A stretch of 64,000 nucleotides of DNA from the NCBI GenBank assembly GCA_964481175.1, contig CAYZSZ010000001.1:1602-65601 (forward strand), read 5' to 3'. The position numbers were made by a program, and so were the translations under genes. Shown one piece after another: positions 12,559-54,302 of this stretch. The notes under the pieces are model-generated. The model saw only the letters and a program-made list of their open reading frames with translations, searched no databases and was not told where the DNA came from. The DNA comes from an uncultured Candidatus Saccharibacteria bacterium (GTDB lineage: Bacteria; Patescibacteriota; Minisyncoccia; Phycocordibacterales; PALSA-1337). Position 1 is the first letter of the stretch, and the number at the start of each line of letters is the position of its first letter.

Positions 12559-12960
12559 ATGAAAGCTACTGACAAATACATCGAAACAATTGGACGACGA
12601 AAGACAGCTACCGCTCGAGTACGTATGACTCCTGCTGCAAAGACCTCATATGTCATCAACGACAAGGAGCTCGCTGCTTACTTTCCTACAAAGCAACTAC
12701 AGGACACTGTTACTTCAGCAATCACTGACTCAAAGACAGTAGAAAAATTTAAAGTAACCGTTATTGCAAAAGGAGGTGGTATCGCTGGACAGGCTGTTGC
12801 TGTTCGACACGGTATCGCACGAGGGCTAAACGAATACGACGCACTACTCCGACCAGTGCTCAAGAAAGCAGGTTTCCTCAAACGAGATCCACGAGCAAAG
12901 GAACGAAGAAAGTTCGGTCTCAAGAAAGCTCGAAAGGCTCCACAGTGGTCAAAACGATAA
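12559..12960 (+). CDS. rpsI: 30S ribosomal protein S9
   Basis: S9 C-terminus '...RDPRAKERRKFGLKKARKAPQWSKR'. Confidence 0.95.
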   Translation: MKATDKYIETIGRRKTATARVRMTPAAKTSYVINDKELAAYFPTKQLQDTVTSAITDSKTVEKFKVTVIAKGGGIAGQAVAVRHGIARGLNEYDALLRPVLKKAGFLKRDPRAKERRKFGLKKARKAPQWSKR

Positions 12961-12974
12961 TTCAAAAAGAGAAA

Positions 12975-12998
12975 GCCCGCCGTCTGGTGGGTTTTTTC
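12975..12998 (+). terminator. rho-independent terminator after rpsI
   Basis: CCCGCC-GTCT-GGTGGG hairpin followed by TTTTTT. Confidence 0.6.
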
Positions 12999-13023
12999 TT
13001 TTTGTGGTATAAATATCGCAGCT

Positions 13024-13218
13024 ATGAAGACCATCCTCACCACAATCGGGATCTGTGTAATCGCACTAATCCTCTTGGCTGTCATTCTGTTCTTTACCCT
13101 CAGGGCTTTCTTGAAAAGAAACGGCCCTCCTGAGCCCAGGCCCCGAGACGACAACCCCTTCAAAAACCCTCTGGAACTTCCTGAATACCCAGAAGGAGTT
13201 TCGAAAGGGGACATCTGA
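13024..13218 (+). CDS. small single-TM protein (64 aa) with Pro/acidic tail, hypothetical
   Basis: ORF bracketed by two terminators and preceded by an extended -10 TGgTATAAA (13005-13013). Hydrophobic helix 'ILTTIGICVIALILLAVILFF'. GC-richer than neighbouring genes. Confidence 0.4.
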   Translation: MKTILTTIGICVIALILLAVILFFTLRAFLKRNGPPEPRPRDDNPFKNPLELPEYPEGVSKGDI

Positions 13219-13237
13219 GTGTGCACCACACGCTCCA

Positions 13238-13275
13238 CCCACCACAAACAACCCACGTGGTGGGCTTGTTGTTTT
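13238..13275 (+). terminator. rho-independent terminator
   Basis: Perfect 8-bp stem CCCACCAC/GTGGTGGG followed by a T-rich tail. Confidence 0.55.
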
Positions 13276-13285
13276 AATAACTAAT

Positions 13286-13855
13286 ATGTATACTCATTTC
13301 ATGAATGAAGAAGAAATAAAGTACGAAGAAACTGATCTCGACGACTCTGTCGTGACAGAGGAAAATGCAGTCGAGGCTGTTAAAAAGCTAAAAGAAAAAC
13401 TAAAGAAAGCGCTTGCAGAAAAGCAAGAGTATTTGACTGGTTGGCAAAAAGCTAAAGCTGATTTTATCAACGCACGCAAGAAAGATGAAGAGTCACAAAA
13501 AGAGTTTTTAAAGTACGCTAACGAGGGAATCATCACTGAGCTCATTGCTACCGTCGATAGTTTCAATATGGCTTTTGCAAACAAAGAATCATGGGAGAAG
13601 GTAGATAAAAACTGGAGAATGGGAGTTGAGTATATTTACAGCCAGTTCTTTAAAACTCTTGAGAGCTATGGACTCAAGGAGATAAATCCTCTAAATGAAA
13701 AGTTCGACCCTACCCGAGACGAAGCGACTGCATACGAGCCAGTTACCGAAGAAGCAAAAGATCATATGATCATTGAAGTAGTACAGAAAGGATATTCTCT
13801 AAACGGAAAAGTGTTAAAGGCACCAAAAGTAAAAGTAGGGGAGTTTAAAAAATAA
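13286..13855 (+). CDS. grpE: nucleotide exchange factor GrpE
   Basis: Coiled-coil N-terminus and GrpE C-terminal beta-domain 'VVQKGYSLNGKVLKAPKVKVGEF'. Confidence 0.85.
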   Translation: MYTHFMNEEEIKYEETDLDDSVVTEENAVEAVKKLKEKLKKALAEKQEYLTGWQKAKADFINARKKDEESQKEFLKYANEGIITELIATVDSFNMAFANKESWEKVDKNWRMGVEYIYSQFFKTLESYGLKEINPLNEKFDPTRDEATAYEPVTEEAKDHMIIEVVQKGYSLNGKVLKAPKVKVGEFKK

Positions 13856-14061
13856 GAAACGGCCGGCCCTCATGGACCGACCGTTGAACCCAAAGCTTCC
13901 GCTGCCCAACTTGTGAAGATGTCCGAGTTGCCCCAGACTTCCTGAACAAAAAGCGGATGCCTTGGACCCAGCTATGCTACAGGCATAACCACTGATATAT
14001 TACTACTTTATATAGAATATGTCAATAGTAGTATAGCCAAAACTTTGATATAATTTCACAT

Positions 14062-14349
14062 ATGTTAGTAACTACCCGCGGACAAAAAGTAATAGAGAAA
14101 ATTGTCACCAATCGTAAAGGACAAATGATGCGAGTGGCTTTTCTCGTCACTGAGATTGCTGGGGCTATCCAGGTAAAAGTCCTCTCAGCTACTCCTGTCG
14201 TTGCGCTTACTTCTGTTGCTCTTGCTATCGTTGGAAATGTTCAAAATATAGTAAATAAATTTTCTGCAACTTACTCTGAATTCGTTTCTGGTTTTTCTGA
14301 CTTTGCATTTTTCATGAGCCAACCAACACGAGCTCCGGCGTTTATATAA
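14062..14349 (+). CDS. doubtful small ORF between grpE and dnaK
   Basis: 95-aa ORF with no SD sequence and a low-complexity product; may be non-coding leader. Confidence 0.2.
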   Translation: MLVTTRGQKVIEKIVTNRKGQMMRVAFLVTEIAGAIQVKVLSATPVVALTSVALAIVGNVQNIVNKFSATYSEFVSGFSDFAFFMSQPTRAPAFI

Positions 14350-14380
14350 TTTTTCTTATTAGAATTAATTATATTTAACT

Positions 14381-16255
14381 ATGTCTAAAATAATCGGAAT
14401 CGATCTTGGAACCACCAACTCTGCAGTTGCAGTGATGGAACTCGGAACTCCAAAGATCCTAGAAAACGCAGAAGGTGCTCGTACGACTCCATCTATCGTC
14501 GCTCAGTCTAAAACTGGCGAGAGAATGGTGGGACTACTAGCAAAACGACAAGGTGTTACAAACCCAAAAAATACGATATATCAGATCAAGCGATTTATCG
14601 GTCACACCTTTGACGATGCAGCAGTGCAGAAAGATCGCTCATCAGTGCCATTCGAAATGCAGAAATCTGCAAGCGGAGGTATCGAAGTAAAAATGGGAGA
14701 CAAATGGAATCGTCCAGAAGAAATCTCTGCGATGATTTTGCAAAAGCTAAAGGCAGATGCAGAAGCACGACTCGGTGAACCAGTCACAGAGGCAGTGATC
14801 ACCGTGCCTGCATACTTTAACGATGCACAGCGACAAGCAACAAAAGACGCTGGAAAGATCGCAGGACTCGATGTAAAGCGAATCATCAACGAGCCGACCG
14901 CAGCAGCACTCGCATATGGCTTCAACAAAAAGAAAGATGAAAAAATTGTGGTCTTCGACTTTGGAGGAGGTACATTCGACATATCAGTACTCGAAGTAGG
15001 AGATGATGTAGTCGAAGTAAAATCAACTGATGGAGATGCGCACCTCGGAGGAAAGGATATCGACCAAAAGATCATCAACTGGCTCGCAGACGAGTTCAAA
15101 AAGACTTCGGGTATCGATGTACGAGGCGATGCACTCGCACTTCAGCGACTCGACGAAGCAGCAGAGAAGGCAAAGATTGAGCTTTCAACTGCCATGCAGA
15201 CTGAGGTAAACATCCCATTCATTACTTCAGGTGCAAATGGTCCTCAGCACTTGCTCCTCACGATGACTCGAGCAAAACTCGAAGAGCTCACCGCAGAGTT
15301 TATCGACCGAGCGATGGCAATCACCAAGCGAGCGATGGAAGCTTCACCATTTAAAATCGCTGATATCAACGAAGTCATCCTCGTCGGAGGACAGACTCGT
15401 ATGCCAGCGATCCAAGCGGCCGTAAAGAACTACTTTGGAAAGGAGCTCCACATGGGAGTAAACCCTGACGAAGTAGTAGCTATCGGTGCAGCGATCCAGG
15501 GAGGTATCCTTGCTGGAGATGTAAAAGACGTACTGCTTCTCGATGTGATCCCGCTATCTCTCGGCATCGAAACCATGGGAGGAGTGGCTACAAAGCTCAT
15601 CGAAAAGAACACGACTATCCCAACATAAAAGTCACAGGTATTCTCAACAGCCGCTGATAACCAGACCGATGTAACGATCCACATCGTTCAGGGAGAACGA
15701 CCGATGGTGGCGGACAACAAGTCACTCGGACAGTTTAACCTCGGTGGTATCGCTCCGGCTCCACGTGGTACTCCACAAATCGAAGTCACTTTTGACATCG
15801 ATGCAAACGGAATTCTCAACGTTTCAGCAAAAGATAAAGCAACTGGAAAATCAAGCTCTATCAAAATCACTGCAAGCTCAGGTCTTTCAAAAGAAGAGGT
15901 AGAGAAAATGCAGAAGGAAGCTGAGATGCACAAAGCAGAAGATGAAAAGAAAAAAGCAGCTGTCGAAGCAAAAAACTTTGCGGAGCAGATGATTTACACT
16001 GCTGAAAAATCTTTGAAAGACTTCAAGGATAAAATCCCAGCTGATGTAACCAAGTCTATCGAGGACAAAGTAGCGGCTCTCAAGACAGTAAAAGAGGGAA
16101 CTGATGCAGCGGCGATAAAGTCAGCAACAGATGCATTGTCTGCTGAACTACAGAAGATCGGAGACATTGTAAACAAAGCTCAAGCAGAACAACCAAAGAA
16201 AGAAGAAGGTGGAGATCCTAATGTTCGAGACGCTGAGTTTAAAGAGAAGAAATAA
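14381..16255 (+). CDS. dnaK: molecular chaperone DnaK, interrupted by an in-frame TAA at 15626-15628
   Basis: Two same-frame ORFs (14381-15628; 15704-16255) together give a colinear ~624-aa Hsp70. Sequence across the stop reads '...[35 protein letters not shown]...', where Hsp70s have Lys at the stop position. Confidence 0.85.
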
Positions 16256-16258
16256 ACA

Positions 16259-16288
16259 AAAAAGCCCCTTGACCAAGGGTGCTTTTTT
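16259..16288 (+). terminator. putative terminator after dnaK
   Basis: Imperfect CCCTT-GACC-AAGGG hairpin followed by TTTTTT. Confidence 0.35.
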
Positions 16289-16305
16289 GTTATAGTGAAG
16301 CCACT

Positions 16306-19300
16306 ATGAAAAAACTAATCCCGGTAATCCTATTTTCTTTATTGCTGCCAGTTTTTGTTGTTTTTGCTCAGACTCCGGCATATAAAGACATGACTTATGT
16401 GAGTGGCTTTGCTCCAGCAACTTCGATGGAGTTTGCCCCGGACGGTAGAATATTTGTAGCAGAACGTGGAGGTAAGGTGCGAGTCATCAAAAACGGCCAG
16501 CTACTACCGACGCCTTTTTTGACTGTCTCTGTGGCACTAAATGGAGAACGTGGTCTAAGCGGTATCACACTCGACCCAAACTTTAGAACAAATGGGTATG
16601 TTTATATCTATTACACACGTGCAAACGAACCTATAAAAAATAGACTCAGCAGATTTACCGTAAGCGCAACAAATCCAGATGTAGCAGACCCGAACTCTGA
16701 AAAAATACTCATTGATGATATTGGATCTGACTCAGGCATACACAATGGCGGGGCACTGCACTTTGGTAAAGACGGAAAACTATATGTCGCTGTCGGTGAC
16801 GGTGGGTCATTCCGAGCAAATGCACAAATTCTTACGAATCTATCTGGAAAGATTTTAAGAATAAATCCAGACGGGACTATTCCAAATGATAATCCATTTA
16901 TCGGATACTCTCTACCAGGAGTGCGCACTGAGATCTGGGCATTTGGCTTTAGAAATCCATTTACGTTTGCAGTAGACCCGGTGAGTGGAAAGATCTATGT
17001 AAACGACGTAGGCGAAACAACGTGGGAAGAGATTAATATCTTGCAACGTGACGGTAACTACACATGGCCAAGATGTGAAGGTCCGCAAAATACTGGGGTA
17101 GGTGAATGCGCTGATTCAGATTTCCAGTATCCACTATACGCCTACAATCACAATAAAAAAGGGGCTTCAATAACTGGTGCCGCTTTTTACAAAGGAGACT
17201 ACTACTTTGGTGATATGGTTTTAAAGGTTATTCGAAAGATGAATTCGAATAATGCTGTTTCCGATTTTATTTCTACATCAGAACTACCTGTAGATATCGA
17301 TGCGGGCCCAGATGGAAACTTGTATTACCTAGGTTATGGGGGAAAGGTGATGAAAATAGTTGCTCAGGACACTCCAATAAACGGTTTATGCGCGGTGACC
17401 GTAGTAAATATCTGCCACTCAGGAACTTTCACCGACCTACCTGACTCTGCAACACATGCACTATGGAGCTGTGTCGGATCATCTGGAGGAACAACAGCTT
17501 CATGTAGTGTACCGCTCAGCTCCAACAAGCTGCCAACTGCAACCATTACTACTCCAGTTGTAAATGCAAAGTACAACGCTGGCCAAACTATATCTTTTTC
17601 CGGAACAGGGACAGATCCCGAAGACGGCACACTACCCGCAAGTGCTTTTTCTTGGTCAGTAGTGTTTCATCACAATACTCACACACATCCATTCCTTGGC
17701 CCAATCACTGGAAAGACTGGAGATTCTTTTGTTGTACCAAACACAGGAGAGCTTGCAGATGATGTCTGGTATCGTATATATCTCACTGTAACTGATTCGA
17801 AAGGTGCAAAGAGCGAAGTGTATAGAGATGTATATCCAAATGTAGTAACACTAACCTTTAGAACAAACCCGGCAGGAAAAAATGTTACCGTAGACGGGCA
17901 ACCACAGACTACACCTTACGTAGTTAAAAGTGTTGTGGGTATGAAACGTATCATATCGGTAGATTCACAAGATTTCTTTGAGTGGTCAAACAATGGCGCA
18001 CGCGAGCAGACTATAACTACACCAACTACAGATACTGCCTATACCGCATCATTTAGTGCTCCAAGACCGACAAGTGTTGTTATGCAGCCATACTACGGCT
18101 CAGGTGATCTTTCTATTCACATGCAAAAAGAAGTTGACGATCGTATTGGAGGGAATATGGCTAATGCCACAACAAAATCACTTTGGTACACTCGAGGCTC
18201 AAACACAGCGGCTTGGGAGCAAAATCCATTCACATTTCTTCGTGGTAATGGGATCGGTATCGATCTCAATGGACAATCACCGTGGAACTCACTAGGTCAG
18301 TATGCTCGATCTGGTACGTTGATTTCGCCTCGACATATTATCTTTGCCAAACATTTTCGTCTTAGTGCTGGGACAACAGTTGTCTTTGTAGATTCAACAA
18401 ATAGAATTGTCGAAAGAACAATTGAAAAAGTAGAGCTCGCGCCAGACCCACTAGATATTGGTGTTGGATTACTAAACAAAGATGTACCAGAGAATATTCC
18501 TTTTTATCCGATTATCTCCCGAAGTATTTGGCAGCAATATCTTGGCAACGTTGGAACAAATGTAGATATTCCTATCATTTATCTCGACCTTGAAGACAAG
18601 ATTGGGGTTCATGTAATCAAAGCAAATGCACTCTACAGCAACAGCGCCAACCTTTCACACGTAAAAGGCACAGGAAAACGAGCTGAGTTCGACGAACCAA
18701 TAGTACTAGGTGACTCCGGAAATCCTGCTTTCGCAATTATTGGTGGTCAACCCGTGCTCTTGTTTACCCACTTTGATTTTCCATTTGGACCAAACTTCGC
18801 TACCCATTTCGATCTGATCAATGGTCTGATGACAAAACTGGGTGGAGGCTACCAATTGTCGACTTTGGATTTGTCACGCTTTGATACCTCAGTGCCAAAA
18901 TTTACTCTAACAGTATCAAAACCGATTGGAGGGACTGTTATTGCCGCTGGTGGAATAAACTGTGGTACAAACTGCTCCGCTCAATACAATAAAGATACCG
19001 AGGTTTCACTTGCAGCAGATAAGGCTACAGGATATGTATTTAGCGGCTGGTCTGGTGACTGTACGGGAACTGGCCTTTGTACTGTAAAAATGGATAAAGC
19101 AAAAACAGTCACTGCGAATTTCACAGTGGCTAACACTGCGCCTATTGCACAAAATGCGACCTTTACATTTTCTGGAACTTCAACAACAGTGGCACTTTCT
19201 GCAAGTGATGCACAAAACGATTCACTCACATACACACTAAGTACACTTTCAACTCCAAAAGGGACTTTGACCAAAGTAAACGAAACGACATACACATATA

Positions 19301-20523
19301 CACTTAAAACACCACTTCCAACCACTTCATTCACTGAGACTTTTACATTTACAGCAAGCGACGGGCGCCTAGCAAGTAACAACGCTACCATAACATTGCA
19401 GTACACAGTAACAGCTCCACCAAAATACAATCTTACTGTTTCAAAAACAGGGCAGGGCACAATACAAGGAACTGGTATTTCATGTGGAGTAGACTGTGCC
19501 GAACAAATAAATGCCGGTAGTGTTATTTCACTTCTTGCAATACCTGCTTCTGGATACACATTTAGTAGATGGACGGGCGACTGTACGAGCACCTCAATCT
19601 CTTGTTCGGTTACATTGGACAAGCCAAAGACTGTTAATGCAATCTTTGTTCTGGCTTTGAATCTAGACGCAGATGGAGACGGTATACTACTCCCACTAGA
19701 CAAATGTCCAAACACACTTCCTGCCGTTCGAAATCAAGTAAACCGTGCTGGATGTGTCCGACCAAAACTTACTAAGTTCACAACCAAACCAGTTGTAGAA
19801 GATGACATCAGTGCAGTTCCAAACGTTGAGCTCGGTATAAACAATGTTGGAAAAATCAAATTCAACACACCAGTAGCACTTACTCGCGAGAATGCTGTAA
19901 TCGACATAGACGCAAACGTTATTATTGAACAAGACAAAGTGGAGATTAAATCTTCAGTAATTCCTGAGCTCAACAGGCCAGCAACTATCACTCTCTACAA
20001 TATCGACGAAAAAAATCCTCGTATTCTGCGTGACGGCGTAGTCTGTTCTGAGCCGCAGTGTAAGATAGAGTCATTCTCAAATGGAACACTGGTCTTTACG
20101 GTTAGCGGCTTTTCGCTCTATACTGTAGAAGAGACTCCGGTCACTGCCACATCTACTCCTAACGTCGAAGAAAAACCAAAACGTAGAGGTGGTGGAGGGG
20201 GAGGGGGAGGCGGAGGTGCTCCAAAATCTGCAACCTCAAACGAAGAGTTGATCGCACAGCTTACTGCTCAACTCAACATGCTTATCGCCGAACTAAATAG
20301 ACTGACAGGCGGAAGCATGCTCACTTCAGACCTTACACAAGGTATGCGTGGAGCAGAGGTCACAAAATTACAAAACAAACTTACTGCAAAAGGATTCCCA
20401 GTAAGTTCTAGCGGATACTACGGAACACAGACAACAACAGCAGTAAAGAAATTTCAGACAAGTAAAGGCATCACACCGACAGGAAATGTAGGTCCCCTTA
20501 CTCGAGCTCAACTAAACAAATAA
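16306..20523 (+). CDS. giant secreted multidomain surface protein (domain order in evidence)
   Basis: Signal peptide; SGL/glucose-dehydrogenase-like beta-propeller ('HNGGALHFGKDGKLYVAVGDGG'); Ig/PKD-like domain; divergent trypsin-like domain ('ISPRHIIFAKHF', 'GDSGNPAF'); two InlB-B-type repeats ('GGINCGTNCSAQY...SGWSGDC', 'GISCGVDCAEQ...SRWTGDC'); thrombospondin-type-3 'DADGDGILLPLDKCPN'; Gly10 tract; C-terminal PG_binding_1-like domain. Confidence 0.7.
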   Translation: MKKLIPVILFSLLLPVFVVFAQTPAYKDMTYVSGFAPATSMEFAPDGRIFVAERGGKVRVIKNGQLLPTPFLTVSVALNGERGLSGITLDPNFRTNGYVYIYYTRANEPIKNRLSRFTVSATNPDVADPNSEKILIDDIGSDSGIHNGGALHFGKDGKLYVAVGDGGSFRANAQILTNLSGKILRINPDGTIPNDNPFIGYSLPGVRTEIWAFGFRNPFTFAVDPVSGKIYVNDVGETTWEEINILQRDGNYTWPRCEGPQNTGVGECADSDFQYPLYAYNHNKKGASITGAAFYKGDYYFGDMVLKVIRKMNSNNAVSDFISTSELPVDIDAGPDGNLYYLGYGGKVMKIVAQDTPINGLCAVTVVNICHSGTFTDLPDSATHALWSCVGSSGGTTASCSVPLSSNKLPTATITTPVVNAKYNAGQTISFSGTGTDPEDGTLPASAFSWSVVFHHNTHTHPFLGPITGKTGDSFVVPNTGELADDVWYRIYLTVTDSKGAKSEVYRDVYPNVVTLTFRTNPAGKNVTVDGQPQTTPYVVKSVVGMKRIISVDSQDFFEWSNNGAREQTITTPTTDTAYTASFSAPRPTSVVMQPYYGSGDLSIHMQKEVDDRIGGNMANATTKSLWYTRGSNTAAWEQNPFTFLRGNGIGIDLNGQSPWNSLGQYARSGTLISPRHIIFAKHFRLSAGTTVVFVDSTNRIVERTIEKVELAPDPLDIGVGLLNKDVPENIPFYPIISRSIWQQYLGNVGTNVDIPIIYLDLEDKIGVHVIKANALYSNSANLSHVKGTGKRAEFDEPIVLGDSGNPAFAIIGGQPVLLFTHFDFPFGPNFATHFDLINGLMTKLGGGYQLSTLDLSRFDTSVPKFTLTVSKPIGGTVIAAGGINCGTNCSAQYNKDTEVSLAADKATGYVFSGWSGDCTGTGLCTVKMDKAKTVTANFTVANTAPIAQNATFTFSGTSTTVALSASDAQNDSLTYTLSTLSTPKGTLTKVNETTYTYTLKTPLPTTSFTETFTFTASDGRLASNNATITLQYTVTAPPKYNLTVSKTGQGTIQGTGISCGVDCAEQINAGSVISLLAIPASGYTFSRWTGDCTSTSISCSVTLDKPKTVNAIFVLALNLDADGDGILLPLDKCPNTLPAVRNQVNRAGCVRPKLTKFTTKPVVEDDISAVPNVELGINNVGKIKFNTPVALTRENAVIDIDANVIIEQDKVEIKSSVIPELNRPATITLYNIDEKNPRILRDGVVCSEPQCKIESFSNGTLVFTVSGFSLYTVEETPVTATSTPNVEEKPKRRGGGGGGGGGGAPKSATSNEELIAQLTAQLNMLIAELNRLTGGSMLTSDLTQGMRGAEVTKLQNKLTAKGFPVSSSGYYGTQTTTAVKKFQTSKGITPTGNVGPLTRAQLNK

Positions 20524-21366
20524 ATGGCAAAAGACTTTTATAAAATTTTAGGGGTTGAAAAAAATGCTTCGCAAGACGAAATCAAAAAAGCATTTCGTAA
20601 ACTCGCGCACCAATATCATCCAGACAAAAACAAAGGTGATGATACAAAGTTCAAAGAAGTAAACGAAGCATACACCGTTCTATCAGACGAACAGAAGCGA
20701 AAGCAATACGACATGTACGGCAATACTGACGCTGGTTTTGGAGGATTCAATGGAGCTCAAGGCTTTGGCGGCTTTGATTTTTCTCAGTTCACACAAAATG
20801 GCCAATCATTTGAGTTTGATCTAGGAGATGTCTTCAATGATTTTTTTGGTGGAGCACGACGTCCTAGAAAAGGAAGAAACATCACCATCGATATCCAACT
20901 CACATTCAAAGAGGCCGCATTTGGAACAGAACGTGAGATTTCAAACGGTAAAGAAAAGATCACCGTAAAGATTCCATCAGGTATCAACAATGGCGAAGGA
21001 CTACGTGTAAGCGGCAAAGGAGAGACAGGAGAAGCTGGTCCAGGAGATCTCATCGTCCGTATCTGGGTTGCAGAGCACAAAACGCTTCGACGTGAGGGCT
21101 ACAATGTAATCACTCAAGTCAAAGTAAAACTTTCATTAGCACTTTTGGGTGGAGAAATAACAGTGGAATCGCTCGATGGAAACATCGAAGTAAAAGTGCC
21201 ACAAGGTGTCATCCACGGTGAAATGCTCCGTATAAAAGGAAAGGGAATACAGCACGAAAATGGCAAGCGTGGGGATATGTACGTGGCTATACTTATCGAT
21301 ATTCCTCGAAAACTCTCAAAATCAGCCACAAAGCTAGTTGAAGAATTAAAGAAAGAGGGTATATAA
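20524..21366 (+). CDS. dnaJ: J-domain co-chaperone, CbpA-like DnaJ without Cys-rich zinc finger
   Basis: J domain '[33 protein letters not shown]', G/F-rich linker, C-terminal substrate-binding domains, no CxxCxGxG repeats. Confidence 0.8.
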
Positions 21367-37211: not shown

Positions 37212-37227
37212 AGGAGTAGTATATTGA

Positions 37228-37506
37228 CTACATCTTGCGAGGTATTATCCCTCTCATCGGCACTATAGCTGGGGGCAAGATATGACAAAATCCGCTTCGG
37301 CGGATTTTGTTTTTTGTAGATTTTTCTAAAAGTAAAAATCTCCTTATTTGGTCGGGTCTACTTCTCTCTTTCCTACCTTTTCTTAAAATGTGATTAAATC
37401 CGGAGTTGGTAAAGTACACGCGTTGATTTAGAACTGCGCAATAGACTGGCTTTAGTGACAAGTAGTATTTCCTGTATTTTTCTAAATTTTCTTCATAGCT
37501 ACTCAT
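37228..37506 (-). CDS. small basic protein, paralogue A of 40054-40389
   Basis: 'YYLSLKPVYCAVLNQRVYFTNSGFNHILRKGRKERSRPDQIRRFLLL' aligns with 'LYKSLKPVFCPALQDWVYFNDHGFRHILVKNNRTRPKSDQIRRFRLL' in the other copy. The ORF reads through the hairpin. Confidence 0.45.
   Translation of the reverse strand: MSSYEENLEKYRKYYLSLKPVYCAVLNQRVYFTNSGFNHILRKGRKERSRPDQIRRFLLLEKSTKNKIRRSGFCHILPPAIVPMRGIIPRKM
37278..37306 (+). terminator. rho-independent terminator after cysS; same palindrome recurs at 40395-40415
   Basis: AAATCCGC-TTCG-GCGGATTT hairpin followed by TGTTTTTT. Confidence 0.6.
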
Positions 37507-37657
37507 CTCCTCACCATACCAAAACCGTGATGAAATCTTTGTGAAATTTAAAAGCAGTGAGGACCTGCTTCGTTTTAAAAGATGTGCACAGTTTAGACAC
37601 AGGTTTTTCAACTTTGTAAGTATGGTATTGCCAGTACTATGCGTGTAAAATACCTAC

Positions 37658-40394: not shown

Positions 40395-40420
40395 AAAATC
40401 CGCCGAAGCGGATCTCTACG
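40395..40420 (-). terminator. terminator for rmuC (minus strand); inverted copy of the 37278 hairpin
   Basis: On the minus strand, ATCCGCTTCGGCGGAT followed by TTTTTA. Confidence 0.5.
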
Positions 40421-40503
40421 TAACCTGTCATCAGCTATAATTCCGATAGGTCCAACTTGAGACAAAGCTCAAAGTACCACAGGTGTATGTAAATTAGTAT
40501 ATT

Positions 40504-45838: not shown

Positions 45839-46846
45839 ATGAGCGTAAATCCTTTCAAACCGCGACTGCACAAACTAGCATCTCGCACTGGTGCCGCTCC
45901 GGTGCCAGCCATCGAAGTGCCCAGAGTAGACCCTGATCCAGCACCTGCAGCAGTGAGTCATGTCCGTTCTCTCGCCCGCGAGGGTGATTATGCACTGCGG
46001 TCGTATTTGCGAGAAATCAGCGAAGTCCCCCTCCTCACACCACAGGAGGAAATCGAACTGGCAGGCAGAATCCAGGCCGGTGACCACCGGGCTCGCGATC
46101 GTATGATCCGTGCCAACCTCCGCCTGGTGGTGAAAATCGCCAAGGATTATGACGGGATGGGCTTGCCCCTCCTCGACATGATCAACGAAGGCAACATCGG
46201 CCTCATGAAGGCTGTCGAGCGTTTCGACCCTACCAAGGGAGCAAAGCTCTCGACGTACGCAGCCTGGTGGATCAAACAAGCCATCAAGCGAGGACTTGCC
46301 AATCAAGGAAAGACGATCCGTCTCCCGGTCCACCTGGTGGACCGAGTGGCAAAAATCCGTCGCACCGCGATCAAGCTCCACGAGGAGCTTGGGCGTGAGC
46401 CGACTGATGCAGAGATCGCCGAAGTCCTGGGCATGACCGCCGAGCGAGTGACCGAGCTCATCACAGCGAGCTATCGTCCTGCATCACTGGACGCGACCGT
46501 CGGAGAAGATGGTGAGTCGGAGTTTATGGATATCGTGCCTGACCCGAATAGCACGACTGCCTACGAAGACTTCGAGCAGCAGACTCGGCACGAGCTCATC
46601 AAGAAACTTACTGTCGCACATCTCGATGACCGTGAGCTCGCAATCATTCAGTCCCGCTTCGGTATCGACGGCGGCTCCGAGCGTACGCTTGAGGAAGTGG
46701 GCGAGCGATTTGGCGTCACCCGCGAGCGGATCCGGCAGCTTCAAAACATTGCGCTCAAAAAGCTTCGGAAAGCGATGCTAAAGCACGAAGCAGTCCGAGA
46801 CCCTGAGCTGGATGAGCTGGCTGCCAGAGCATCAGCAATCAAGTAG
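45839..46846 (+). CDS. RNA polymerase sigma-70 family factor (RpoD/SigA-like, regions 1.2-4)
   Basis: Region 2 '[37 protein letters not shown]'-type sequence; region 4 HTH '[29 protein letters not shown]'. Distinctly GC-rich versus neighbours. Confidence 0.85.
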   Translation: [335 protein letters not shown]

Positions 46847-46866
46847 GCTATAACAGCTTACGAAAC

Positions 46867-46898
46867 CCCGTACCACGAGAAATGGTACGGGTGTTTTT
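46867..46898 (+). terminator. rho-independent terminator between convergent sigma-factor and msrAB genes
   Basis: CCCGTACC-N9-GGTACGGG stem followed by TGTTTTTA. Confidence 0.6.
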
Positions 46899-46905
46899 AT
46901 TTATT

Positions 46906-48183
46906 TTAAATCAAATCCAAGTACTCCCCATACCCCAATTCTTTCATTCTCTCTTTTGGGATAAATCTTAATGCAGCAGAGTTCATACACCACCGCTTTC
47001 CTCCTTTGTCCTGTGGTCCATCATCAAATACATGTCCAAGATGTGAGTCAGCGACAGCAGAACGGACCTCGGTGCGTTTTGTAAACAACGTATTGTCTTC
47101 GTGGAGAGTGACTGCTTTTTCTGAAATAGGTTTTGTGAAAGAAGGCCAGCCAGTTCCTGACTCGTATTTGTCTTTTGATGAAAATAGGGCTTCACCAGAA
47201 ACAATATCTACATATATTCCCTCTTCATGGTTGTCCCAATACTCATTTTCAAACGGTGGCTCCGTGCCATTTTCTTTTACTACATGATACTGGAGCTCGG
47301 TGAGCCCAGAATGTTTTTTAATGTATTCATTTCTTCCCGAAGCATTGCGGTAATATGTGTAGCGAACTGGATTCTTTTCATAATAGTCCTGGTGATAGTC
47401 TTCGGCTTTATAAAAAACAGGTCGTGGGAGGATCGGTATCGGTAGTCCTTTTGCTACTTCACGGGCGATCTTTTCTTCTTCTTTATTTCCAAAATATATT
47501 GCTGATGAGTACTGTAGTCCCCGATCGACAAAAGAGCCGGTCGTATCGTTTGGATCTGCGTGAGTCAAAATATGCTCGACTAGTTTCCGGTAATTTATCT
47601 TTGTAGCATCGTAGTGCACTTCGACTACCTCTCGGTGGCCTCCTGCTGCATAGTTTTCATATGTTGGATTAGCTGTGGTACCGCCAGCGTATCCAGAGAT
47701 GACATCTCCGACTCCACGTAGTTTTTCAAAATCTGCTTCGACACACCAAAAGCACCCACCAGCAAAGAGTGCTGTACTGTCAGCTGTCACTATTTCTTGT
47801 GTTGTTTCTGGTTTGTCTTTCCAAATATGTAGATAGACCCCGGCATAGTGGACGACAACATAGAGAAAGAAAATGTAGCCGACAACACAGGTGATCACAG
47901 TGAGTGCGACTGTATTTATGATTTCATTTCTGCGACGCTTTGCTTCATCGATCGTACATATTCCCTTTTTTCTCCTGAAATAAAGAAACAAAGCGATCAC
48001 CATGGCGATGAGTCCCGCTATACGAAAGACCCATTTGTAGTCTCCATACAGTGTGTCAGCGAGAGAGGTGGCAAAGCCCAATGTGCCGATACCAAACACA
48101 ACTAGAATCACCGGAGAAAGACAGCAGAGTGAAGCGATGATGACTGGCACAGAACTTATTTTGAGGATTTCTTTGATATTCAT
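46906..48183 (-). CDS. msrAB: membrane-anchored methionine sulfoxide reductase MsrA-MsrB fusion with MerT-like N-terminal domain
   Basis: N-terminal TM domain with vicinal Cys '[10 protein letters not shown]'. MsrA '[11 protein letters not shown]'. MsrB C-terminus '...[13 protein letters not shown]'. Confidence 0.8.
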
Positions 48184-48272
48184 GTGGTAAGTATAGCACT
48201 GTTGACTTTATGTAAAGACAATGTCATAATCCGCCTGTTAGTCAACAAAAACCAAGAGAAAGAGAGTTCTAG

Positions 48273-48869
48273 ATGTCCTTTAACATCAGAAACGTTCAAT
48301 TCGTGTTCGCACGTCACGGTCAGGCCGATCCGGCGAAAATCGGACAGCAGGACCAAGACCGGCCGCTCAATGAGACGGGAATCGAACAAGCAAAAAGCCT
48401 GGAGCGAATGCTTGTGAACATGGTCTTCGACCTCGCGCTCATTTCGCCGACGAACCGCAACTGGCAGACTGCAGAGATCGTGCTCGAAGACATGCGGCCT
48501 GAGATGATGGAACTGGAAGCCCTCCTCAATCACCAAGACGGCAGTGTCAACGCCGACATCAAAGCGATGTATGAGGAGCTTGGGCACTCCACTCTCCGTG
48601 CCTACCTCAGGCACCCAAAGGCAGAGGCGCTGCGAAGTTTTGCTGAGCATGCGGCTCGTGAAATCGAAAGCGAAGTCGCTCTTCGGGCAGACGAGGCCAC
48701 AGCGTTTGACGTCTTCGTCTCCGGCAATAGCGTCCTCATGAACGCGATCATCAGCGAGATGTTCCCCACCTGCGCCGCAAACGTACTCGACTTCGTCTTT
48801 ACCGAGGGCGGTGCGGTCAAGATCAGTGTCGACCATCATGGTGATGCGACGTTCATCGTCGTGAACTGA
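48273..48869 (+). CDS. histidine-phosphatase superfamily protein, SixA-like (copy 1)
   Basis: 'VQFVFARHGQADP...DRPLNETGIEQAKSL...LALISPTNRNWQTAEIV' parallels SixA 'VFIMRHGDA...RPLT..G...LISPFLRAEQT'. GC-rich. Confidence 0.55.
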   Translation: MSFNIRNVQFVFARHGQADPAKIGQQDQDRPLNETGIEQAKSLERMLVNMVFDLALISPTNRNWQTAEIVLEDMRPEMMELEALLNHQDGSVNADIKAMYEELGHSTLRAYLRHPKAEALRSFAEHAAREIESEVALRADEATAFDVFVSGNSVLMNAIISEMFPTCAANVLDFVFTEGGAVKISVDHHGDATFIVVN

Positions 48870-48903
48870 TCTACGGTTCGGAGCACTCCTCAAGCTTCAA
48901 CGA

Positions 48904-48936
48904 CCCATCATGTCTCTGACCTCTGGTGGGTTTTTC
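48904..48936 (+). terminator. terminator after SixA-like copy 1
   Basis: CCCATCA-N13-TGGTGGG stem followed by TTTTT. Confidence 0.5.
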
Positions 48937-49013
48937 TATTATTGACTCACAAGGCGAATTATAGTAAAAAGATGTAGTTAGTAAACAGAACCAAAAAGAA
49001 GAAAGGTAGTCTT

Positions 49014-49637
49014 GTGACACGATTCTACAATTGCACATTGGTATTTGTCCAGCACGCCCAGGCAGCATCGGGCAGCGACGACAGAACGCGCATTCTCACC
49101 ATTGGAGGGCGGCGACAGGCTGTCGCGCTCATGGAGAGACTTGGTGGACTGAGGTACGACTTTGTCGTCATCTCACCTACGAACAGAGCCCGGCAGACCG
49201 CGGGCGCTCTCGCGGGCGACATTGAGACGACGAGAATCATCGAGATCAAATCGATGTACGGAACCTTGGTTCCGGCCGATCACCGAGATCTGTTGGGGAT
49301 GTTTGGGGATCTTGGTTACGACAGGCCTCTGGCGGATTATTTCAGCCACAGGCATAACCCTGCCCTGCGCCGACTCTCCGAGCAATGCGTCCTCGACATC
49401 CGCCAGGATCTCGGCGACGCAGTTGCTGGCAGAAACCTCTTGTTTGTCGGCCATCCTGGCCTGTTGAGCGGATTGATTTACAACATGTTCGACGAAGGCG
49501 CAATTAAAACCCTTGCCCTCACCCACGTTCTTGGCGAATGCGGAGCGATACGCATCGACACCGACGGCCAAGGCGAAGCAGTCGCTGAAGTCGTCGCACA
49601 GGGCCGCGTCGAAACAGTCACGGCAGTCGTGCACTGA
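49014..49637 (+). CDS. histidine-phosphatase superfamily protein, SixA-like (copy 2, degenerate RHG -> QHA)
   Basis: Paralogue of copy 1 ('LVFVQHAQAAS...ISPTNRARQTAGAL'). The same 3' tail 'TACGGTTCGGAGCA.TCC.CAAGCTTCAA' and a terminator follow both copies. Confidence 0.5.
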   Translation: MTRFYNCTLVFVQHAQAASGSDDRTRILTIGGRRQAVALMERLGGLRYDFVVISPTNRARQTAGALAGDIETTRIIEIKSMYGTLVPADHRDLLGMFGDLGYDRPLADYFSHRHNPALRRLSEQCVLDIRQDLGDAVAGRNLLFVGHPGLLSGLIYNMFDEGAIKTLALTHVLGECGAIRIDTDGQGEAVAEVVAQGRVETVTAVVH

Positions 49638-49672
49638 CAAGTACGGTTCGGAGCATTCCACAAGCTTCAAAA

Positions 49673-49710
49673 CCCCACCACGTCGGAAGACCTGGTGGGG
49701 TTAGTTTATT
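49673..49710 (+). terminator. terminator after SixA-like copy 2, shared with convergent gene
   Basis: CCCCACCA-N12-TGGTGGGG stem followed by a T-rich tail. Confidence 0.5.
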
Positions 49711-50615
49711 CTGATTAGGCTTTTTTCTGAATCGATTTCAATAACTGCTCCGTCTTTTATTATTTTACTTGCTACTTTTGTTTCTGTAACAAAAGGTTTT
49801 CTGAAAGCATATACGCTAGCGAAAATGGCGATGTCAGCGTGACTCGTCACCCCTCCCTCATCCGTCACGATCCCCGCAGCTTTGTGAAGTATTGGTAGGT
49901 AGAGGGGTGTGGTCATGGGAGCGACGAGGATGTCGCCTTCGTTTAGTTTGTGAAAGTCTTTGGGTGAGAGGATGATTTTGGCGATGCCTTTTACATTGCC
50001 TTTGTAGGCCACGTTCCCTTTTATTTCTTTTACCCGCTCCACTACTTCTTCGACATACTCAAAATTATTTTTCTTTAAAAACTCATCCCATGAAAGCGGA
50101 ACATAGGTACCAGAGTGAAATATAAAAGTATCTGGTACCGGGACATGTTCGACGGCTTTGTAAAAAGGCTCGAGTGCGGCATCGACGAGCTCGCGGTATA
50201 TGCGGCAGCGATTTATGATCTCTTCACTTCGATCTGTCTGTATATCAGCACTCCACATATTTGAAATATAGTATGGGACAACTGCGTGGACGTAGAGTCG
50301 GGCAAAACAATCGACGAGTTCGGGGATACTTACTTTGTCGTGCAGCTTTTGCTTGAACTGTTGTATCAAGTCTTTGCAAACATCAATATTGGTTTTAAAT
50401 GCATCCGAGTACGCATAGGCAAACATCAATGGTTTTAGCCGCGCATGCTCCTCTTCTGCTCGGATAGAGTCCATCCGCTCACCATCATACTTCATGATGT
50501 AGTGCTCGTACGCATCACCGATGAGGTCACGGAGATATTTTGTCTGAGCCAAAGAGGCTGCTTCAAACATCGGTGGAGCTATGTATCGAGTGCCCATTTT
50601 CTGAAGGCGGATCAT
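49701..50615 (-). CDS. PEP-utilising-enzyme mobile (phosphohistidine swivel) domain protein, divergent head-less paralogue P1
   Basis: C-terminus 'GDILVAPMTTPLYLPILHKAAGIVTDEGGVTSHADIAI...' aligns with the swivel domain of P2-P5, but it lacks the 'AREMKIPCV' block. Confidence 0.55.
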   Translation of the reverse strand: MIRLQKMGTRYIAPPMFEAASLAQTKYLRDLIGDAYEHYIMKYDGERMDSIRAEEEHARLKPLMFAYAYSDAFKTNIDVCKDLIQQFKQKLHDKVSIPELVDCFARLYVHAVVPYYISNMWSADIQTDRSEEIINRCRIYRELVDAALEPFYKAVEHVPVPDTFIFHSGTYVPLSWDEFLKKNNFEYVEEVVERVKEIKGNVAYKGNVKGIAKIILSPKDFHKLNEGDILVAPMTTPLYLPILHKAAGIVTDEGGVTSHADIAIFASVYAFRKPFVTETKVASKIIKDGAVIEIDSEKSLIRIN

Positions 50616-50728
50616 GAAATAAATATAGCATTTTATTGATAGGCTTGAGGGGCTTGAAGTATTGCATTATATGTGTTATAGTTTTTTCCGAACAGCAACA
50701 ACAGCACCCCAAACCTTAGGAGTACCAA

Positions 50729-51172
50729 GTGAATCCCAGCAAACCCTGTAAAATTCTTTGTGTTTGTCGCGGCAACGCCGACCGCAGTCCAGCAATGGCT
50801 ACTATCCTGGATTTGTTCCTGACGCGTGCCGGCGCTAACGTCATTTGTGACAGTGCCGGCCTGACTGAAAATGCTGCCAATGGTGGCCCAGCGCCACGGC
50901 ACGTGGTGACCGCAGGCAGGCGCATCGGAATCGACCTGTCGAGACACCGCCGCAAGCACATCAACTCACTGACTCTCACAAGCTACGACCTCATCATCAC
51001 GGTGGATGACGAAGTCGCATCTGTGCTCGTCAAGGCAGGTGTGCTGCCAAGAATGATCTACAACGCGAACATCCCGAACCCTTGGCCCGTTCAGTTCCAG
51101 GAGGACTATGACCAGACGTTTGGCCTGATCCTCGCCACCATGTACCGGGTGGTCAGTCGTTACTACCCGTAA
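50729..51172 (+). CDS. LMW protein-tyrosine-phosphatase / ArsC-like family protein
   Basis: P-loop 'ILCVCRGNADRSP' (C-X5-R-S). No clear DPYY general-acid motif. GC-rich. Confidence 0.55.
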   Translation: MNPSKPCKILCVCRGNADRSPAMATILDLFLTRAGANVICDSAGLTENAANGGPAPRHVVTAGRRIGIDLSRHRRKHINSLTLTSYDLIITVDDEVASVLVKAGVLPRMIYNANIPNPWPVQFQEDYDQTFGLILATMYRVVSRYYP

Positions 51173-51228
51173 GCGCAGCAATCGCCTGCAGCACGCAGCC
51201 CGACCAGACGAGTTCTGGTCGGGCTGAA

Positions 51229-52293
51229 CTATTTTATTATCTTAACAACTCCAGTATTAGCATCTACTTCAACTAGGTCTCCGTCTTTAAATACTTGCGT
51301 GGCGATTTTAGTATTCGTAACACATGGTATTTTCATTTCTCGAGCTACGATGGCTGCATGGCAAAGAATACCTCCAGCGTCAGTCACAAATGCTGCTGCC
51401 TGTTGCATAATAGGTAACCACTCTGGTCGCGTCATTGTAGTCATGAGAATCTCTCCAGGTTGAAACTTATTACAATCTTCATCTCTAAAGATAATTCTTA
51501 CCCTTCCCTGAACTAAGCCGGCAAAAGCCTTTGTACCCTTAATCTCGACTGTTCCGTCTTTTACTTCAGTAATTCTTGAAATCAGTTCCCTGGCCACTTT
51601 TCCCACAAATAGTTTTGCACCTTTACTATCAGTATAAGAAACAGAGTACTCGTATCTTTCTTTAAGATTATTATAATCTGGCAATGTTCCATTCTGAATG
51701 TAGTTTTTGAACTCATTTAATGACAACGCCTGGAGATACGCTTCGTTTATATTTTCTTTTTGACTGATCAAGCTAAACACGGCACAAATATATTTCTCTA
51801 TACTTGAGTACATGTGCTCTGTGTCTTTACGGGCTTTCTCAAAAAGAGCTAGTACTTCTATTTTTCTCTGTTCATTGCCCTCAATACTTTTAATTTCATT
51901 TGAAGCCCAAATCGGCACTAGAAAGTGTGGAATTAACTTCAAGTGCAAACTCACAAATTTTTCAAATTCTTCAGCCGAAGGGATCTTTGCATCTATGCCT
52001 ATGATTTTATCTATTTCGTTTTGAATTCTACTAAGTTCAGCTACTGATTTTTCTGCATACCCTGTCAGAATAATGGAGTTTTTTGCCAGAGTCATTGCAA
52101 CCTCTTTAGTTTCAGATTCTATTCTAAAAAGTGTAACTAGACCATTTTCATACCTGAATAGTATGTGCTCAAACCCAGCACCGACTTCCTTTTTCATTTC
52201 AAAAATGTACTCTTTTGCGAAAAGCTCTATCGAAATAGCAGAATATTTTGTAGTCCAGATCTTTACCCAATTTTGTTTTTGTATATTTTCCAT
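51229..52293 (-). CDS. PEP-utilising swivel-domain protein, head-less paralogue P2
   Basis: Unique ~260-aa N-domain. C-terminal 'GEILMTTMTRPEWLPIMQQAAAFVTDAGGILCHAAIVAREMKIPCVTNTKIATQVFKDGDLVEVDANTGVVKIIK'. Confidence 0.65.
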   Translation of the reverse strand: MENIQKQNWVKIWTTKYSAISIELFAKEYIFEMKKEVGAGFEHILFRYENGLVTLFRIESETKEVAMTLAKNSIILTGYAEKSVAELSRIQNEIDKIIGIDAKIPSAEEFEKFVSLHLKLIPHFLVPIWASNEIKSIEGNEQRKIEVLALFEKARKDTEHMYSSIEKYICAVFSLISQKENINEAYLQALSLNEFKNYIQNGTLPDYNNLKERYEYSVSYTDSKGAKLFVGKVARELISRITEVKDGTVEIKGTKAFAGLVQGRVRIIFRDEDCNKFQPGEILMTTMTRPEWLPIMQQAAAFVTDAGGILCHAAIVAREMKIPCVTNTKIATQVFKDGDLVEVDANTGVVKIIK

Positions 52294-53289
52294 TTATTTT
52301 ATTACCTTTACTATACCAGTATTCGCATCTACTTCAACTAGGTCTCCATTTTTGAGGAGCTGAGTCGCTTTTTTGACCCCTACCACACACGGTATTTTGA
52401 GCTCTCGAGAAGTAACCGCGGCATGGCTGATCACTCCACCGTGCTCGGATACGATCGCGCCTGAGATTTTCATAATGGGTAAAAGATCCGGTGTGGTAGT
52501 CGATGCAACGAGTATGTCTCCCTGCTCGAAAGTGTGCATGTCTTTTCGAGAGTTTATGATCTTCACTCTACCTTTAACCTTTCCGGGAAAAGCGACTTGC
52601 CCAGTCAGATCTTGCCTTTCCTCATTTGGATATTCAAAATCAAATTCGGCACAGACATCGTCCCAGGTATCATACAACCTATTATTTGTATATGCGTATC
52701 CAGCTAATCTTTTTTCTAAAACTTCATCACTTGGCAATCTGTCAGATAAAATCTCACTTAGTAAAAGTACATTGGCGTACTTGATTTTTTCTGGATATAT
52801 TTTCTTTGCAGAATTTCTAAAGACAGCAAAGCAACCTGGTGCAAAATATTCTGTATACTTTCGCATTTCGAGCAGTGCGTCAAAAGGAATACCTCGCTTT
52901 TCTCGGTACTCGATCGCCCACCACATATAGGCGATCCATGGGTAAAATATTTTGAGCTTATCGATAAAATCCTTGAACTCCTCACGTGACAAAGCTTTTT
53001 CTTCTCTCAGTGCGGTTTCTATACTTGGATAGTATGTTCGAATCTGCTGAATCGCGTATGCCTCATCATCATACTTGCCCGCTTGCTCACGTAGCCACTT
53101 TAGACCATCTGTATTACAAAAATAGTACGACAGCTTGCCATCGTTGCGACAAACGATGAAAGGCTGCACTAAAAATTCTTCTGTGCTCCACGGAAATCTT
53201 TTTGACCCCTCAAGCTCATGATGAATCTCGGTAAAACTGAGTGGTACGTCAAGATGGACTAGTTCTTCAATTTTGAGCTTCTTTTTCAT
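52294..53289 (-). CDS. PEP-utilising swivel-domain protein, head-less paralogue P3
   Basis: Unique N-domain. C-terminal '...GDILVASTTTPDLLPIMKISGAIVSEHGGVISHAAVTSRELKIPCVVGVKKATQLLKNGDLVEVDANTGIVKVIK'. Confidence 0.65.
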   Translation of the reverse strand: MKKKLKIEELVHLDVPLSFTEIHHELEGSKRFPWSTEEFLVQPFIVCRNDGKLSYYFCNTDGLKWLREQAGKYDDEAYAIQQIRTYYPSIETALREEKALSREEFKDFIDKLKIFYPWIAYMWWAIEYREKRGIPFDALLEMRKYTEYFAPGCFAVFRNSAKKIYPEKIKYANVLLLSEILSDRLPSDEVLEKRLAGYAYTNNRLYDTWDDVCAEFDFEYPNEERQDLTGQVAFPGKVKGRVKIINSRKDMHTFEQGDILVASTTTPDLLPIMKISGAIVSEHGGVISHAAVTSRELKIPCVVGVKKATQLLKNGDLVEVDANTGIVKVIK

Positions 53290-54302
53290 TACTTTAAAAT
53301 TTTCACGACTCCAGTATTCGCATCTACTTCAACTAGGTCGCCGTCTTTGAGGACTTTGGTTGCTATTTTGGTGCCCACAACACATGGCACCTTGAGTTCT
53401 CGACTTGCGATCGCTGCATGGCACGTTGCCCCACCTTCATCTGTCACGATTGCACCTGCAATTTTCATATATGGAACGTAATCTGGGTTAGTCATTTCAG
53501 TTACAAGAACATCGCTTGGTTGTATCTTTGAAGCGTCAGCTTTTACTCGAACAATTTTGACAGTACCTGTGACCTTACCAATCTGTGCTGGTCTTCCTTT
53601 TATCTCGACAACCTGTTCTGCTTTCACCACCTCTAAAGAAAGACCTTGATCAGTTAATATTTTTTCTAGTTGATCAAGTGGAAAAACTCTACGATTAAGC
53701 ATAAAACAACCTTGCAGGCGCTCGAAGACTTCTGGCTTTTTGCCTTTTGCTATTGAAATAGCCTCTTCTGGCAAGAGAACAGAGACAAACTGTTTATATT
53801 GCGGATAATAGTTATTCCAAAACTCTACATATAACTTATTTGCTTCCTCAGAATATTTCTCAGCTTCGATACGACGATCGAGGGTCTCTTTTTTAAAATC
53901 TGCTGGTGCATTTTCACTATCTGGTACACCGAAGACAGTATTCATGGCTGACCACCACTCAACAAGAAGTGAATAATACTGAGCTAACTCATCTGCATTT
54001 GTAATCTTTTTTTCTTGTTTGAGATACGGAGAAAGCTGTATCCAACTTTCATCTAGCGTCTTTATTATTTCTGATTGAAAAGAAGGCTCAGTGACTTTTA
54101 CTTTTAAAAGCGACTCGATCTCTTGTAACTCGATTTGAGAATACCAGACCGAGCCTTTTTGACCCTCAGGTGAGACGATAAATAAATTGTTTTTTACTTC
54201 GTGGTTGAGAAAGCGTTTGTAACCCAAACGATCACTGTCATTCCACATTGTGAAATAGAACAATGTTTTTTCCCGAGAAAAGATGTTTGATAAAGTGATC
54301 AT
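53289..54302 (-). CDS. PEP-utilising swivel-domain protein, head-less paralogue P4
   Basis: Unique N-domain. C-terminal '...SDVLVTEMTNPDYVPYMKIAGAIVTDEGGATCHAAIASRELKVPCVVGTKIATKVLKDGDLVEVDANTGVVKILK'. Start overlaps the P5 stop (ATGA). Confidence 0.65.
   Translation of the reverse strand: MITLSNIFSREKTLFYFTMWNDSDRLGYKRFLNHEVKNNLFIVSPEGQKGSVWYSQIELQEIESLLKVKVTEPSFQSEIIKTLDESWIQLSPYLKQEKKITNADELAQYYSLLVEWWSAMNTVFGVPDSENAPADFKKETLDRRIEAEKYSEEANKLYVEFWNNYYPQYKQFVSVLLPEEAISIAKGKKPEVFERLQGCFMLNRRVFPLDQLEKILTDQGLSLEVVKAEQVVEIKGRPAQIGKVTGTVKIVRVKADASKIQPSDVLVTEMTNPDYVPYMKIAGAIVTDEGGATCHAAIASRELKVPCVVGTKIATKVLKDGDLVEVDANTGVVKILK

Follow-up and report, generated by a model that had tools for sequence, protein, structure and literature searches.

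A premature TAA codon private to one assembly in an otherwise intact dnaK gene of a Candidatus Saccharibacteria contig

The dnaK locus and its chaperone neighbourhood

The 64,000-nucleotide stretch of DNA analysed here (the window) belongs to a Paceibacteria-like bacterium of the Patescibacteria (Candidate Phyla Radiation, CPR). It carries two open reading frames, at 14381-15628 (415 aa) and 15704-16255 (183 aa), that share one reading frame, and translation of 14381-16255 yields one Hsp70 with a single internal TAA at 15626-15628. The initial annotation had described these two same-frame ORFs as a colinear full-length Hsp70 broken by an in-frame TAA in the context ACA-TAA-AAG, and both parts of that description are borne out, well past anything that chance would produce: positions 15617-15637 read ATC CCA ACA TAA AAG TCA CAG, and the NCBIfam DnaK equivalog profile NF001413 is matched at positions 1-412 by the first fragment (681.9 bits) and at positions 414-622 by the piece 3' of the TAA (247 bits). 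As the two matches run from 1 to 412 and then from 414 to 622, one codon alone is missing from dnaK. The features of the locus are as follows, with L001 and L002 denoting intact alleles on contigs of two other assemblies.

13286..13855, + strand: grpE (nucleotide exchange factor), intact; profile match, with PF01025 in relatives
14381..15625, + strand: dnaK 5' part, codons 1-415; match to NF001413, no base different from L001 and L002 (both intact)
15626..15628, + strand: premature TAA, i.e., Ser416 TCA->TAA; the variant base, 15627, is A in the window and C in all other assemblies
15629..16255, + strand: dnaK 3' part, codons 417-624, closed by the normal TAA stop (16253-16255); in frame, undecayed, 100% identical to L001 and L002
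15704..16255, + strand: mechanical ORF of 183 aa from the first in-frame ATG 3' of the premature stop; ORF scan
16266..16289, + strand: terminator-like hairpin and T-run 3' of the normal dnaK stop
20524..21366, + strand: dnaJ-type co-chaperone, 280 aa, intact; present at 100% identity in three further assemblies

The gene encodes an ordinary bacterial DnaK, and the chaperone genes around it are arranged as usual, with grpE upstream and dnaJ downstream in an order that relatives keep. Its product matches E. coli DnaK structures with E = 1e-218 (phmmer), and its match to the bacterial DnaK/Hsp70 equivalog is colinear and full length, the TAA at 15626-15628 being what sets it apart from an uninterrupted member of that family. 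Directly upstream of dnaK, at 14062-14349, lies a 95-aa ORF conserved in the window and in relatives. Between dnaK and dnaJ (16279-20523) is a gene for a 1414-aa protein that combines a glucose/sorbosone-dehydrogenase propeller, Flg_new_2 and Big_9 repeats, ten consecutive Gly residues and a C-terminal peptidoglycan-binding domain; this protein changes size fast, with close relatives of 674, 1203 and 1405 aa. A search for the CIRCE heat-shock operator, allowing up to 3 mismatches, found none anywhere in the window, and no hrcA adjoins grpE (window 12900-14380); in Southlakia epibionticum, an HrcA-type regulator does adjoin grpE.

Were the gene translated as written, its 5' part would supply the nucleotide-binding domain, the interdomain linker and some 27 residues from the N-terminal end of the substrate-binding beta domain. 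In an alignment with E. coli DnaK, the premature stop falls at Lys421, a residue located near the start of that beta domain and N-terminal both to the strands that build the hydrophobic pocket (F426, V436) and to the helical lid. A product of 415 aa would retain its ATPase domain and linker and would probably be unable to hold substrates. Translation from ATG 15704 would give, at best, a reinitiation product devoid of the first strands of the substrate-binding beta domain; the Shine-Dalgarno-like GGGAGA upstream of this ATG arises by chance from the conserved codons for QGER. No second Hsp70 is encoded within the 64-kb window.

The original codon and the base change

When the DnaK protein was searched with its stop codon patched, the matches were full-length DnaK proteins from metagenome-assembled genomes (MAGs) of Patescibacteria/CPR, labelled Candidatus Taylorbacteria, Paceibacterota or Parcubacteria. 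The closest of these (P0001) is a full-length DnaK of 624 aa, and every protein from P0001 to P0006 reads TIPT-S-KSQ across the stop site. The DNA encoding P0001 occurs in two assemblies, on contig L001 of one (ERZ28655916, 8,487 bp) and contig L002 of the other (ERZ27309396, 3,597 bp), and the window's dnaK differs from each of them at one base in 1875, gene position 1247, which is window position 15627. There, the window has A and the two contigs have C, i.e., TAA as against TCA (Ser), a C->A change at the second codon position; a contig of a third assembly, L010 (ERZ28656156), likewise has C. Five loci of relatives (dnaK DNA ~88% identical, or protein in the same 90% cluster) agree, namely the four loci L003-L006 (~88% DNA identity) and the further relative L011, such that TCA is found in eight of eight related dnaK loci. 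Among the best 120 homologues, the residue at the stop site is Gln in 77, Ser in 38 and Ala in 7, Lys never occurs, and no dnaK is split.

These comparisons fix the ancestral codon and the base change exactly, as TCA->TAA through C->A at 15627, and they correct the initial annotation on two points. The lost codon had been taken for Lys (AAA), presumably because E. coli DnaK has Lys421 at the aligned position; near-identical alleles and all eight related loci have Ser (TCA) instead, and an origin of the stop from AAA is rejected on these grounds and on the lack of Lys among the homologues. The change had also been pictured as an A->T error in an A-rich run, for which the observed C->A substitution leaves no place.

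Beyond dnaK itself, five other assemblies (ERZ28655916, ERZ28656156, ERZ27309396, ERZ27309394 and Logan run SRR6747781) have contigs that align to window positions 4381-42441, covering 31,511 bases at 99.97-100% identity. Position 15627 is the window's sole private difference within these compared bases, and all three contigs that cover it (L001, L002 and L010) disagree with the window. Apart from it, variation is limited to the following. At 8843, L010 has G for the window's A, a K->E change; L010 is the derived form here, because Lys is also found in a relative further removed. At 16229, a variant private to L010 changes D to Y through G:C->T:A. A variable site at 13989 falls almost at the edge of contig L001, whose end is 9 nt away, and the variable positions also include a run of N in contig L015. 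The internal differences among these near-clonal assemblies (8843 K->E, 15627 S->stop and 16229 D->Y) are all amino-acid-changing, and two of the three are G:C->T:A transversions, a pattern that fits either unfiltered young mutations or errors of the oxidative-damage type.

Database records agree with this distribution. By exact-sequence look-up, the 415-aa and 183-aa DnaK fragments are recorded from one NCBI contig (66,376 bp) only; intact 624-aa forms of DnaK are recorded from ENA and Logan assemblies, as are other proteins of the window. The TAA allele was found nowhere else by exact protein look-up or in GTDB representative genomes and JGI metagenomes. A pattern scan with N at the variable base had as its sole match among GTDB representatives an unrelated Firmicutes MAG, whose dnaK has TCA, and had no match in JGI metagenomes; a further query, with the small ORF that precedes dnaK, yielded no new contig covering the stop site.

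Origin of the stop codon

That TAA might be decoded as sense throughout this genome is suggested by the single dnaK site and by nothing else in the window. The initial annotation held that TAA is the normal stop of the neighbouring genes and that no genome-wide recoding applies; the counts agree, with TAA ending 46 of 69 ORFs (TAG 12, TGA 11) in a greedy non-overlapping set that covers ~96% of the window, at positions matching the gene lengths called in relatives' contigs. A reassigned codon would stand in frame in many genes and be depleted as a terminator, neither of which was found: dnaK apart, every conserved gene is unbroken, and a scan of all same-frame segment pairs separated by one stop disclosed no further conserved gene split in this manner. 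Reassignment of TAA to a sense codon is thus so improbable as to be negligible.

Programmed readthrough, or a suppressor tRNA, would have UAA usefully decoded as sense and full-length DnaK made by design. The frame does run on perfectly 3' of the stop, and Gln and Lys, which near-cognate tRNAs can insert, are tolerated at this position. However, UAA is the stop hardest to read through in E. coli termination, and a functional readthrough stop would be conserved in orthologues, where TCA is found in eight of eight related loci; since the same population and all relatives have TCA, a readthrough signal could not have had time to evolve, and the flanks are identical to those of the sense allele. 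Neither a leaky context nor a stimulatory structure was found: TAA-A is an ordinary terminator context, shared by 12 ORFs in the window including dnaK at its own true stop, and the ~120 nt around and 3' of the premature stop fold no better than shuffled sequences (z = -0.44). ARAGORN and Rfam detected only tRNA-Glu(CTC) in the window, and no suppressor tRNA. Established cases (UGA-Sec, UAG-Pyl, leaky stops of phage genes) resemble dnaK in having an in-frame stop after which the frame continues; in dnaK, by contrast, the codon is UAA, the site is not conserved even among members of the species, and its context is ordinary, with no stimulatory structure. We regard designed readthrough as very improbable, a few shades less so than reassignment. 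Recoding and conserved readthrough are rejected because the base is private, TAA serves as the principal terminator, dnaK is the one split gene, no suppressor tRNA occurs in the window and the RNA 3' of the stop has no unusual structure; the interruption of dnaK belongs to no recoding system. Of the explanations offered initially, an error and a recent nonsense mutation both stand, and programmed readthrough falls with the absence of the stop from other assemblies and from relatives. The useful outcome is in this respect a negative one, in that recoding and readthrough are left without any support.

Only this contig has the base, dnaK matches intact alleles at every other position, and no recoding is involved. 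From here, we infer that the cause of the A at 15627 is technical rather than biological, and our preferred explanation, which we hold as somewhat probable, is a sequencing, assembly or consensus artefact in an organism whose DnaK is normal. The organism's true base at 15627 would be C where the deposited contig has A, and Ser416 (TCA) of an otherwise perfect dnaK would thus come to read TAA; the artefact would be a one-off, limited to one assembly, and the cell would make normal full-length DnaK. In favour of this, the base is a singleton, the sole difference in 1875 from L001 and L002, and C is found at this position in L010 also, all three being independent assemblies of the same population. 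The 627 nt 3' of the stop are identical to those of intact alleles, with no decay, and both grpE and dnaJ are intact. In transposon-sequencing data for S. epibionticum, the only Patescibacterium for which such data exist, DnaK came out as growth-defect/essential/essential and GrpE as essential (PMC10633639, supplementary file 1), and a null allele at high frequency is therefore unlikely a priori. Nearly identical genomes also often differ in "pseudogenes" with internal stops that result from assembly errors tied to coverage, platform and assembler (Cooley & Wright 2024, PMC11017572). The interruption described here is of this well-known class, in which single internal stops separate one assembly from its near-identical siblings; it shares with those cases a single stop, in a conserved gene, in one assembly only, and it differs in that MAGs lie outside that study and in that the dnaK contig is otherwise without signs of poor quality. 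This last point weighs against an artefact, as consensus substitution errors are rare in a long contig (66 kb), and further errors that might have accompanied one were not seen: no second gene of the window is split or broken, and the 31.5 kb compared contain no further private difference. Moreover, other non-synonymous private SNPs, few in number and including two in L010, point to real micro-diversity, of which the nonsense base could be one instance.

A genuine and very recent nonsense mutation (a G:C->T:A transversion) at high frequency in the sampled population is accordingly the alternative to be taken seriously, and we hold it as possible, if rather less probable than an artefact. UAA416 would then end translation, and it may be that dnaK is a null or severely hypomorphic allele still to be purged by selection; it could be transiently tolerated, e.g., at low temperature or under an epibiotic lifestyle, and background near-cognate readthrough could provide traces of full-length DnaK. 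As Gln, Ser and Lys are all natural at this position (Gln in 77 of 120 and Ser in relatives, Lys in E. coli), the product of such readthrough would be functional. The rarity of short-read consensus substitution errors and a contig flawless otherwise over 31.5 kb fit a real mutation, as does the non-synonymous nature of the other private changes (in L010, K->E at 8843 and D->Y at 16229), which is as expected of very young mutations, with 16229 likewise being G:C->T:A; errors, however, would produce the same non-synonymous pattern. A nascent pseudogene of this kind would resemble the window's dnaK in its one point mutation, its lack of secondary lesions, its intact sister orthologue and its G:C->T:A change. 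An older, decaying pseudogene would carry several lesions or diverge faster, and dnaK shows neither (1 difference in 1875 nt from L001 and L002). Against a genuine nonsense allele, the stop is seen in one assembly and three others of the same population have TCA; there is no decay 3' of the stop; in the one Patescibacterium tested (PMC10633639), DnaK is essential or nearly so; no second Hsp70 is visible in the 64-kb window; and the truncation, by alignment with E. coli DnaK, removes substrate pocket and lid. That the TAA is not only real but dominant in one natural population of this ultra-small CPR bacterium, with cells living without full-length DnaK or on traces made by background misreading of UAA (as Gln, Lys or Tyr, each natural or tolerable at this site), seems to us doubtful; should it be so, DnaK would be conditionally dispensable in a reduced-genome lineage that otherwise keeps it universally.

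Under the preferred reading of an artefact, one base in a public MAG is wrong, annotation pipelines would report two DnaK fragments or a pseudogene, and completeness or core-gene calls for this genome could drop. Were the base real, the window would hold a snapshot of a newly arisen loss-of-function chaperone allele, of mild interest for CPR population genetics and with no new mechanism. The biological weight of the stop is thus little, and as a biological mechanism we file it as not a real feature, or, if the base is real, as an ordinary nonsense polymorphism.

Other loci in the window

Several neighbouring ORF pairs came up as possible in-frame stop cases and were rejected. The 1414-aa protein and dnaJ, scpA and scpB, and the ctpA-like (S41 protease) gene and L9 each prove to be two genes, with domains of their own; the same separation holds for S9 and a shadow ORF and for the tandem PEP-utilizer paralogues.

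These paralogues belong to an array on the reverse strand at 49701-56284, in which a 661-aa protein with PPDK_N ATP-binding and PEP-utilizers swivel domains is followed by four tandem paralogues (337, 331, 354 and 304 aa) that are 27-33% identical to it. All four carry at the C-terminus a PEP-utilizers mobile domain in which one His is invariant, and their N-terminal ~250 residues match no Pfam family. Such an array of phosphohistidine swivel domains is unusual, and it adjoins ddl and mur cell-wall genes.

Within a window that is ~96% coding, a non-coding gap of 446 nt separates cysS from dnaB (37212-37657). The gap is 100% conserved in near-identical contigs and absent from the less closely related L012 and L014, in which the two genes are 46 nt apart. 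It holds a strong terminator-like hairpin, AAAATCCGCTTCGGCGGATTTTGTTTTTT, at ~37285-37315, and a 53-nt copy, 77% identical and inverted, is located at 40395-40447. Rfam detected no family in the gap at threshold; the gap may hold a gene for a small RNA or be what is left of an insertion.

The region 46000-50000 has a GC content of 0.49-0.52, compared to ~0.42 elsewhere, and carries an msrA-msrB fusion with a MerT-like membrane N-terminus as well as a histidine phosphatase, both of which are also present in the relative L012.
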